The notes under the pieces were generated by a model, which was not told the origin of the DNA, did not search any database, and worked only from the letters and a program-made list of their open reading frames with translations. This document shows positions 647 through 1,308 of a stretch of 40,883 nucleotides of DNA, in pieces (positions within the stretch are counted from its first letter, which is position 1; every line of letters begins with the position of its first letter). This stretch comes from Bigelowiella natans CCMP2755. Its lineage: Eukaryota > Protista > Cercozoa. The DNA lies in assembly GCA_000320545.1 (NCBI GenBank), contig ADNK01001031.1, positions 1 to 40,883 of the forward strand. The letters run 5' to 3'. Both the position numbers and the translations under genes were made by a program.

Positions 647-1308
647 ATCTTTGTAGGGCGTGTGCATGTATGTATAGCCCATATTTTTCATCATCGTTCT
701 AACATTTCAAAGCAGGCTGATTCACAAAATACCCAAAAGGTACTACTTCGTGACCTACCCTTGGTTGCCGCCCTTTGCTCGTATTGCAATGAGAAATTGA
801 TACAAGCACATGCTGGCATCTATCGCAACCCGTTTTCCCTTAAGAGATGATTATCATATCACATTCATGGACGGCACGATGGCTGCGGATGGAGGAGGTG
901 TAACACGCGTGCAATGGGCAACATTGGGATTTATCAGATTAAGAGATTAACACCTGGAGCGATTCGAGGCTGACTTCCGACACAGCCTGCGGAGCCTCCT
1001 TCGTGATCAACGGTCCTAGCCCCTTGATTCCACCCCCCCTCAGCGTCCAGAGTCGCATCACCTGGCGGGTCCTTCTCGATTGTGTTTTTCGGTTTGTGGT
1101 CTATGGTATATTGAGTAGGAGCTTTAAATCCGCGACAGACTTGCATCCTCTCCCGCCCTCTCCCTCTCTTTCTCCCATATCTCACCTGAAGGAGGGAAGG
1201 CACCGGGCATGTGGAGAGCAAGGACATCGCGATGAAACCGAGTAGTGTTGCTGTTAATCTCAAGAGGCTCGGGCGAAGCTGCAGCGCCCGGTGTGCGCTG
1301 GCAGCCAT
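154..1308 (-). CDS. FEN1: Flap endonuclease 1 (XPG/Rad2 family), 5' part, with N-terminal signal peptide + basic transit-like extension; continues beyond window start
   Basis: Spliced exons 1308-1186, 1100-954, 838-~759, ~500-467 and ~217-156 give [149 protein letters not shown]. This matches the FEN1 N-domain motifs MGIKGL, AIDASMxxYQFL and TSHLxGxFxRT. Introns are GT-AG and keep frame. Confidence 0.9.

Follow-up and report, generated by a model that had tools for sequence, protein, structure and literature searches.

The stretch of DNA that we analysed, hereafter the window, comprises 40,883 nt of the Bigelowiella natans CCMP2755 genome. A FEN1 gene lies on its minus strand: the start ATG is at position 1308 and the gene runs past the window start. 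The part inside the window gives a five-exon model that is open over 149 aa and contains the Pfam XPG_N domain, the G[IV]xGL start and the AIDAS motif. Identity to the five best homologues is 52–58% over residues 65–149, and the best PDB matches are FEN1 structures, obtained with a query profile that includes a fungal FEN1. As far as the window reaches, the gene is FEN1, a member of the XPG/Rad2 family. The features of the locus are collected in Table 1, together with those of a second gene with a similar presequence and of further genes of the window.

Table 1. Features of the FEN1 gene, of the second LRGG-bearing gene and of other genes in the window
Feature	Positions	Strand	Evidence
FEN1 5' leader, transcribed, without ATG, 41 nt	1309..1349	-	contigs X1 and X2 to 1349, X14 to 1346
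FEN1 exon 1, aa 1-41, basic N-region and hydrophobic signal-like segment, core at about aa 20-36	1186..1308	-	hydropathy; spliced contigs
GT-AG intron, 85 nt, within the presequence	1101..1185	-	joint 1100/1186 in X1, X2 and X14
Arg-rich transit-peptide-like segment, aa 42-60, internal Met56	1044..1100	-	sequence
LRGG, aa 61-64, which would form P4-P1 of a predicted ubiquitin-type cut site	1032..1043	-	sequence
Mature FEN1 start (Gly65 = Gly2 of other FEN1s), remainder of exon 2	954..1031	-	BLASTP start at residue 65 in 119/120; alignment; PDB FEN1 matches
FEN1 exon 3, AIDAS motif	759..838	-	Pfam XPG_N E=3.4e-05; contig joints
FEN1 micro-exon 4	467..500	-	contig joints; open GT-AG model
FEN1 exon 5; gene continues beyond the window start	154..216	-	contig joints; loose end at 154
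Second gene, exon 1, strong signal-like segment	39859..39974	+	hydropathy
Second gene, exon 2, Arg-rich, RRLRGG (LRGG at 40312-40323, aa 81-84) and, after it, an acidic region that matches no known family	40189..40580	+	X1 contig covers 40185-40580
Pyruvate phosphate dikinase	4724-7900	-	
Ribosomal protein L13, probably organellar	14927-15694	+	
Vps36-like gene	36429-39000	+	

Exon 1 (1308–1186) is separated from exon 2 (1100–954) by the 85-nt GT-AG intron. In the contigs of three runs (X1, X2 and X14), which belong to three studies, the four GT-AG introns are spliced out, including the one within the presequence; the RNA status of these runs is a guess, and the skipped introns show that the molecules were spliced. 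The contigs reach 1346–1349 and one of them, 1731 nt long, extends beyond the window part of the gene, while the raw-read run X22 gave six reads only over the region. A previous interpretation of this DNA (the sequence-only reading) had assumed that the upstream exon belongs to the transcript, and the contigs spanning the 1100/1186 joint bear this out. It had also placed the translation start at the upstream ATG and not at an internal Met: the transcripts carry the upstream ATG and their leader has no earlier one, and some use of Met56 would be conceivable.

FEN1 is arranged head to head with an intronless diphthamide-synthesis gene (PF01866) that starts at 1517 on the plus strand. The transcript contigs of the two genes end at 1349 and 1500, respectively. 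This head-to-head arrangement, with about 150 nt between the contigs, suggests a shared promoter.

The spliced and transcribed presequence of FEN1 is 64 aa long. The hydrophobic stretch of exon 1 is uncharged, with a 15-residue Kyte-Doolittle mean of 1.9 (signal-like segments were called here from hydropathy only), and residues 42–64 include seven K/R and no D/E. On the basis of hydropathy, charge and spliced contigs, the FEN1 mRNA encodes a bipartite layout, in which a signal-like segment is followed by a basic, transit-peptide-like one. The presequence ends in LRGG (1043–1032) and GIKGL begins directly after it, at residue 65, so that the motif stands immediately before the first residue of the cargo, as the sequence-only reading had claimed.

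Then, we compared this junction with 120 FEN1 homologues, the best 120 of 4491 matches to an exon-plus-fungal profile and mostly fungal. The BLASTP alignment begins at residue 65 in 119/120. A Met directly precedes G[IV]xGL in 118 of the 120 homologues, 108 of which start there, and none carries LRGG in its first 200 aa. In the alignment, the usual Met of FEN1 is replaced here by the last Gly of LRGG. The probability of finding LRGG by chance at this fixed site is approximately 1e-5 to 4e-5, calculated post hoc. No named chlorarachniophyte FEN1 orthologue was present among the same best 120 of 4491 profile matches.

Other searches with parts of the gene gave no related sequence: exon 2 alone retrieved no FEN1 (one search returned three unrelated repeat proteins), exon 3 had no phage match, and the DNA pattern LRGG-G[IV]KGL occurred at 119 loci in the 12/64 metagenome parts scanned, none of them FEN1 and, by eye, patatin- and TilS-like. 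Separately, an IMG/VR "viral" contig (L120:3-587) was found to encode a fungal-type FEN1, with Taphrina as the nearest named match; it is probably eukaryotic contamination.

Counted over the six frames of the window, LRGG occurs 12 times, against 5.5 ± 2.4 (maximum 11) in 30 Markov simulations. Most copies are outside identified genes, and this raw count is weak evidence. The copy at 18468 and nine other sites had no tie to gene starts, the copy at 39832 being upstream of the ATG of the second gene.

A ubiquitin beta-grasp domain, as found in ubiquitin fusion precursors, was not detected upstream of the motif: neither presequence exon had a Pfam match. The room for such a domain is small, with the first 41 aa being signal-like and 19 aa lying between exon 1 and LRGG. 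Most deubiquitinases (DUBs) need a folded ubiquitin domain for efficient cutting. At its junction the FEN1 precursor, judged from its sequence, is organised as in ubiquitin fusion precursors, yet it would not belong to them because no such domain was detected.

The second gene (39859–40580, plus strand) also combines a signal, an Arg-rich segment and RRLRGG (aa 79–84), in a layout like that of the FEN1 presequence. Its intron (39975–40188) was predicted from GT-AG and frame, and the protein had no Pfam or Atlas match. We consider it a candidate protein of the periplastid compartment (PPC). Two further genes of the window in which a hydrophobic segment lies at the N-terminus served as controls, one at 23766 with a stromal-type presequence and one at 23346; LRGG was absent from both, and the presequence of the former carries LGRGG near the signal.

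These two genes deserve a short description of their own. The one at 23766–24605 (plus strand) is intronless and AhpC/TSA-like; its bipartite presequence is of the plastid type, and a TGA lies in frame in a UxxC position. It likely encodes a plastid-targeted selenoprotein, which we take to be SelU-like. The best match of this protein is from Amorphochlora amoebiformis (79%) and the third from Lotharella oceanica (72%), both chlorarachniophytes. The database models of these Amorphochlora and Lotharella relatives begin just past the TGA position and for this reason are probably truncated. The gene at 23346–22545 (minus strand) is spliced, has an N-terminal hydrophobic segment without LRGG and contains motifs resembling those of a PhoD-type phosphatase; a 40-aa piece of it had no Pfam match.

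The position of LRGG matters in view of the catalytic chemistry of FEN1. The sequence-only reading had stated that a free N-terminal Gly sits at the active site, and this is in print: the Gly2 "at the processed N-terminus" belongs to the active site of FEN1, where it activates the attacking water (PMC5490271). With the processed Gly2 placed there, import of FEN1 would likely have to be followed by a precise cut that exposes this residue. In regard to destination, POLD, POLH, RFC1 and RPA1 of chlorarachniophytes go to the nucleomorph, as seen by GFP, and Table S1 of the same paper lists for B. natans a FEN1 predicted as NM (JGI 20879) and a FEN1 with no signal, belonging to the S-phase cluster (JGI 56533) (PMC5635652). 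The latter corresponds to the host copy without presequence that had been expected from the sequence. A comparison of gene neighbourhoods with the published table of B. natans genes did not connect the window FEN1 to JGI 20879. The inference that FEN1 is imported into an endosymbiont compartment, as had been proposed, and here into the periplastid/nucleomorph compartment, has good support: a nucleomorph is present in this lineage, the transcripts encode a bipartite presequence, and the B. natans table contains both an NM-predicted and a signal-less FEN1. The targeting of FEN1 to the nucleomorph is probably not new, being already tabulated as predicted for B. natans.

LRGG recurs in the import signals of five other proteins, including the second gene of the window, in three algal lineages (chlorarachniophyte, cryptophyte and ochrophyte). 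These proteins were found by searching for the motif and the sample shows recurrence, not enrichment. The ubiquitin tail, taken over six residues, is LRLRGG, and the longer match RLRGG is present in three of the five.

Two cases come from the supplement of a study on Fe-S assembly factors of the Nbp35/Cfd1/HCF101 type (PMC6105332). The Nbp35 186667 of the cryptophyte G. theta, localised to the PPC by GFP in a diatom, has a signal followed by IRLRGG at aa 51–56, and its host paralogue 185988 is without LRGG. In the Nbp35 model 80910 of B. natans, a Met comes immediately after LRGG; the model is filed as cytosolic, and the LRGG-less paralogue 42407 as PPC. From its sequence, model 80910 could be a PPC protein truncated in the presequence. 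LRGG occurs only twice, in 186667 and 80910, in the supplement table of about 100 or more sequences, considering the first 400 letters of each. On the annotation itself, we observe that the cytosol/PPC assignment of BIGNA_80910 and BIGNA_42407 may be reversed, as the "cytosolic" model has a leader ending in LRGG before Met (PMC6105332).

The remaining two cases are among six LRGG matches in the supplement of PMC12412216: the Cdc48 presequence of Bolidomonas carries FLRLRGG and is scored "not plastid, SignalP positive", and that of Aureoumbra carries LELRGG and is scored "plastid, low confidence". In both of these ochrophyte presequences LRGG is within 25 aa of the signal cut. In the portions of the source papers used here, the motif stands unremarked, both in Nbp35 (PMC6105332) and in Cdc48 (PMC12412216). 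The supplements of PMC5443833 gave no LRGG match, and PMC7980591 gave internal Symbiodinium matches only, among the matches listed (2 of 6). Furthermore, PRGG closes the presequence listed for TPT4b, an envelope protein of diatoms (PMC5635587). Because of this RGG, of the "plastid, low confidence" score of the Aureoumbra Cdc48 and of the LGRGG in the 23766 presequence, an RGG-type motif may not be specific to the PPC.

Taken together, we propose that a ubiquitin- or Ubl-type protease in the PPC acts as a transit peptidase that cuts after the LRGG of imported FEN1, a reading to which we assign a probability of roughly 0.55. We infer the following steps. The signal peptide would take the FEN1 precursor into the ER during translation, and ER entry would hide LRGG from the host cytosolic deubiquitinases. 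The Arg-rich segment would then carry the precursor across the periplastid membrane into the PPC, a former cytosol in which ubiquitin enzymes can persist and where the tail mimic could be read and cut. A cysteine protease of the type that processes ubiquitin/Ubl precursors would cut after Gly-Gly and yield Gly-IKGL, with no need of Met removal, and the released FEN1, bearing its catalytic N-terminal Gly, would serve nucleomorph DNA replication and repair. LRGG could thus mark where some PPC proteins are matured, a role akin to that of the stromal processing peptidase for stromal proteins.

Published data bear on the presence of such enzymes. B. natans has SP+/TP+ ubiquitin and, in the portion of PMC3542566 used here, no signal-bearing proteasome subunits. 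The chlorarachniophyte Uba1 falls in the plastid-targeted clade, and no detectable SELMA is reported for chlorarachniophytes. A USP8-like gene (JGI 35899) is predicted as "plastid" in the B. natans table, among three such rows (PMC5635652). Against the proposed protease, no PPC DUB is established in chlorarachniophytes, because the UCH-like protein found by proteomics is without SP/TP (PMC3542566) and the ptDUP clade, which includes haptophytes, stramenopiles and Vitrella and not cryptophytes, names no chlorarachniophyte in the portion of PMC12412216 considered.

A related but unlikely explanation keeps the same import and the same cut after Gly-Gly and assigns it to a Gly-Gly endopeptidase that is not a DUB, for example of clan CE (SUMO-protease/adenain-like) and possibly of giant-virus origin, with the likeness to ubiquitin being convergent. 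The lack of a detected ubiquitin domain upstream of LRGG agrees with it, as does the relatedness between giant-virus polymerases and the DNA polymerase delta that B. natans targets to its nucleomorph (PMC5635652). However, the extended motifs RRLRGG, IRLRGG and LRLRGG match the six-residue ubiquitin tail, and no SENP entry was found among the B. natans table rows searched (PMC5635652).

We regard it as somewhat more doubtful that LRGG serves in sorting or recognition, or forms the flexible end of the transit peptide, with another peptidase cutting upstream and aminopeptidases trimming to Gly65, or with a short extension being retained. Exactness is not visible in the second window gene and in the G. 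theta Nbp35, where an acidic stretch follows LRGG, and RGG is also found in the plastid-envelope presequence of TPT4b (PMC5635587). Conversely, the FEN1 motif lies directly against the single residue whose N-terminal position is required, with the usual Met missing, and in the Nbp35 model 80910 the motif abuts Met.

It is improbable that the protein acts in the host, with translation from Met56, or an eroded N-terminal ubiquitin fusion, giving a short leader that ends in LRGG and is removed by the host cytosolic DUBs. Met56 is in frame, and 22 genes of B. natans are ubiquitin fusions, some of which contain less than a single ubiquitin unit (PMC6332867), but the transcripts carry the upstream ATG and the signal exon with no earlier ATG, the signal-less, S-phase FEN1 is listed separately for B. 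natans (PMC5635652), and FEN1 is not among the fusion partners named in section 4 of PMC6332867. An eroded ubiquitin fusion or a Met56 leader may also be how the LRGG motif first arose. Lastly, that LRGG is read by coincidence from a G-rich stretch of DNA within a neutral linker is very improbable: both presequence motifs of the window do lie on G-runs and the six-frame count reaches 12, but the fixed-site chance given above and the recurrence in presequences of three algal lineages argue against it.

We know of no account that settles by which route, and by which enzyme, the transit peptide is removed from periplastid proteins; to our knowledge, the prediction of the PPC proteome is poor and no positive motif is available for it. 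Full-text searches, assessed on titles and abstracts, found no description of LRGG as a maturation site of import signals, and a prior mention could occur in Curtis 2012, in the Hirakawa targeting papers and in supplements. "RGG" is absent from the main texts, in the form considered, of PMC3542566, PMC12730881, PMC6332867, PMC6411479, PMC3774753, PMC12412216, PMC12136025 and PMC11528492. An LRGG maturation site in three algal lineages is apparently an undescribed and directly testable candidate for PPC protein processing. Such a short, defined site allows a direct test, provides a list of candidate enzymes (signal-bearing DUBs such as JGI 35899 or ptDUP) and possibly a predictor of PPC proteins; FEN1 stands out as unusually clean, since the Gly needed for catalysis has to be exactly the first residue.

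More tentatively, LRGG could be a widespread PPC maturation signal, shared by chlorarachniophytes, with green plastids, and by cryptophytes and ochrophytes, with red ones, in which many PPC transit peptides would terminate in a mimic of the ubiquitin tail, with a resident deubiquitinase as the missing PPC processing peptidase; we hold this broader view with less than even confidence. If true, it would imply convergence or gene sharing across independent endosymbioses, and it would account for the persistence of ubiquitin enzymes in a compartment without an identified proteasome.

Several known systems can be compared with the one proposed here. Coronavirus PLpro (LXGG), adenain and ASFV pS273R cleave a short linear LXGG or GG site without the ubiquitin fold; these Gly-Gly-cutting viral proteases differ in that they serve polyprotein or virion maturation and not organelle import. 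The nucleomorph-targeted replication proteins of chlorarachniophytes (PMC5635652) are, like FEN1, host-encoded and provided with an N-terminal import signal, with a signal-less second FEN1 for the host nucleus; unlike here, the part of that paper considered describes no processing motif, and FEN1 is neither GFP-tested nor discussed there as a nucleomorph protein. The stromal processing peptidase and the ASAFAP-type bipartite signals (PMC3774753, PMC12136025) share the two-step removal of signal and transit peptide, whereas their motifs concern the signal-peptide cut and stromal maturation, and "RGG" is absent from both main texts. The SELMA machinery and ptDUP of red complex plastids (PMC12412216) likewise comprise ubiquitin enzymes, a deubiquitinase among them, that act on preproteins within the periplastid space, although ptDUP is proposed to remove conjugated ubiquitin and not to cut the precursor chain, as proposed for FEN1. 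Finally, compared with ubiquitin fusion precursors (Ub-L40 and Ub-S27a, and in B. natans Ub-actin, Ub-P1 and Ub-NiSOD; PMC6332867), the FEN1 leader is signal- and transit-like, without a detected ubiquitin domain, and its cut would follow import; what FEN1 has in common with them is LRGG directly before the cargo and a predicted exact N-terminus.
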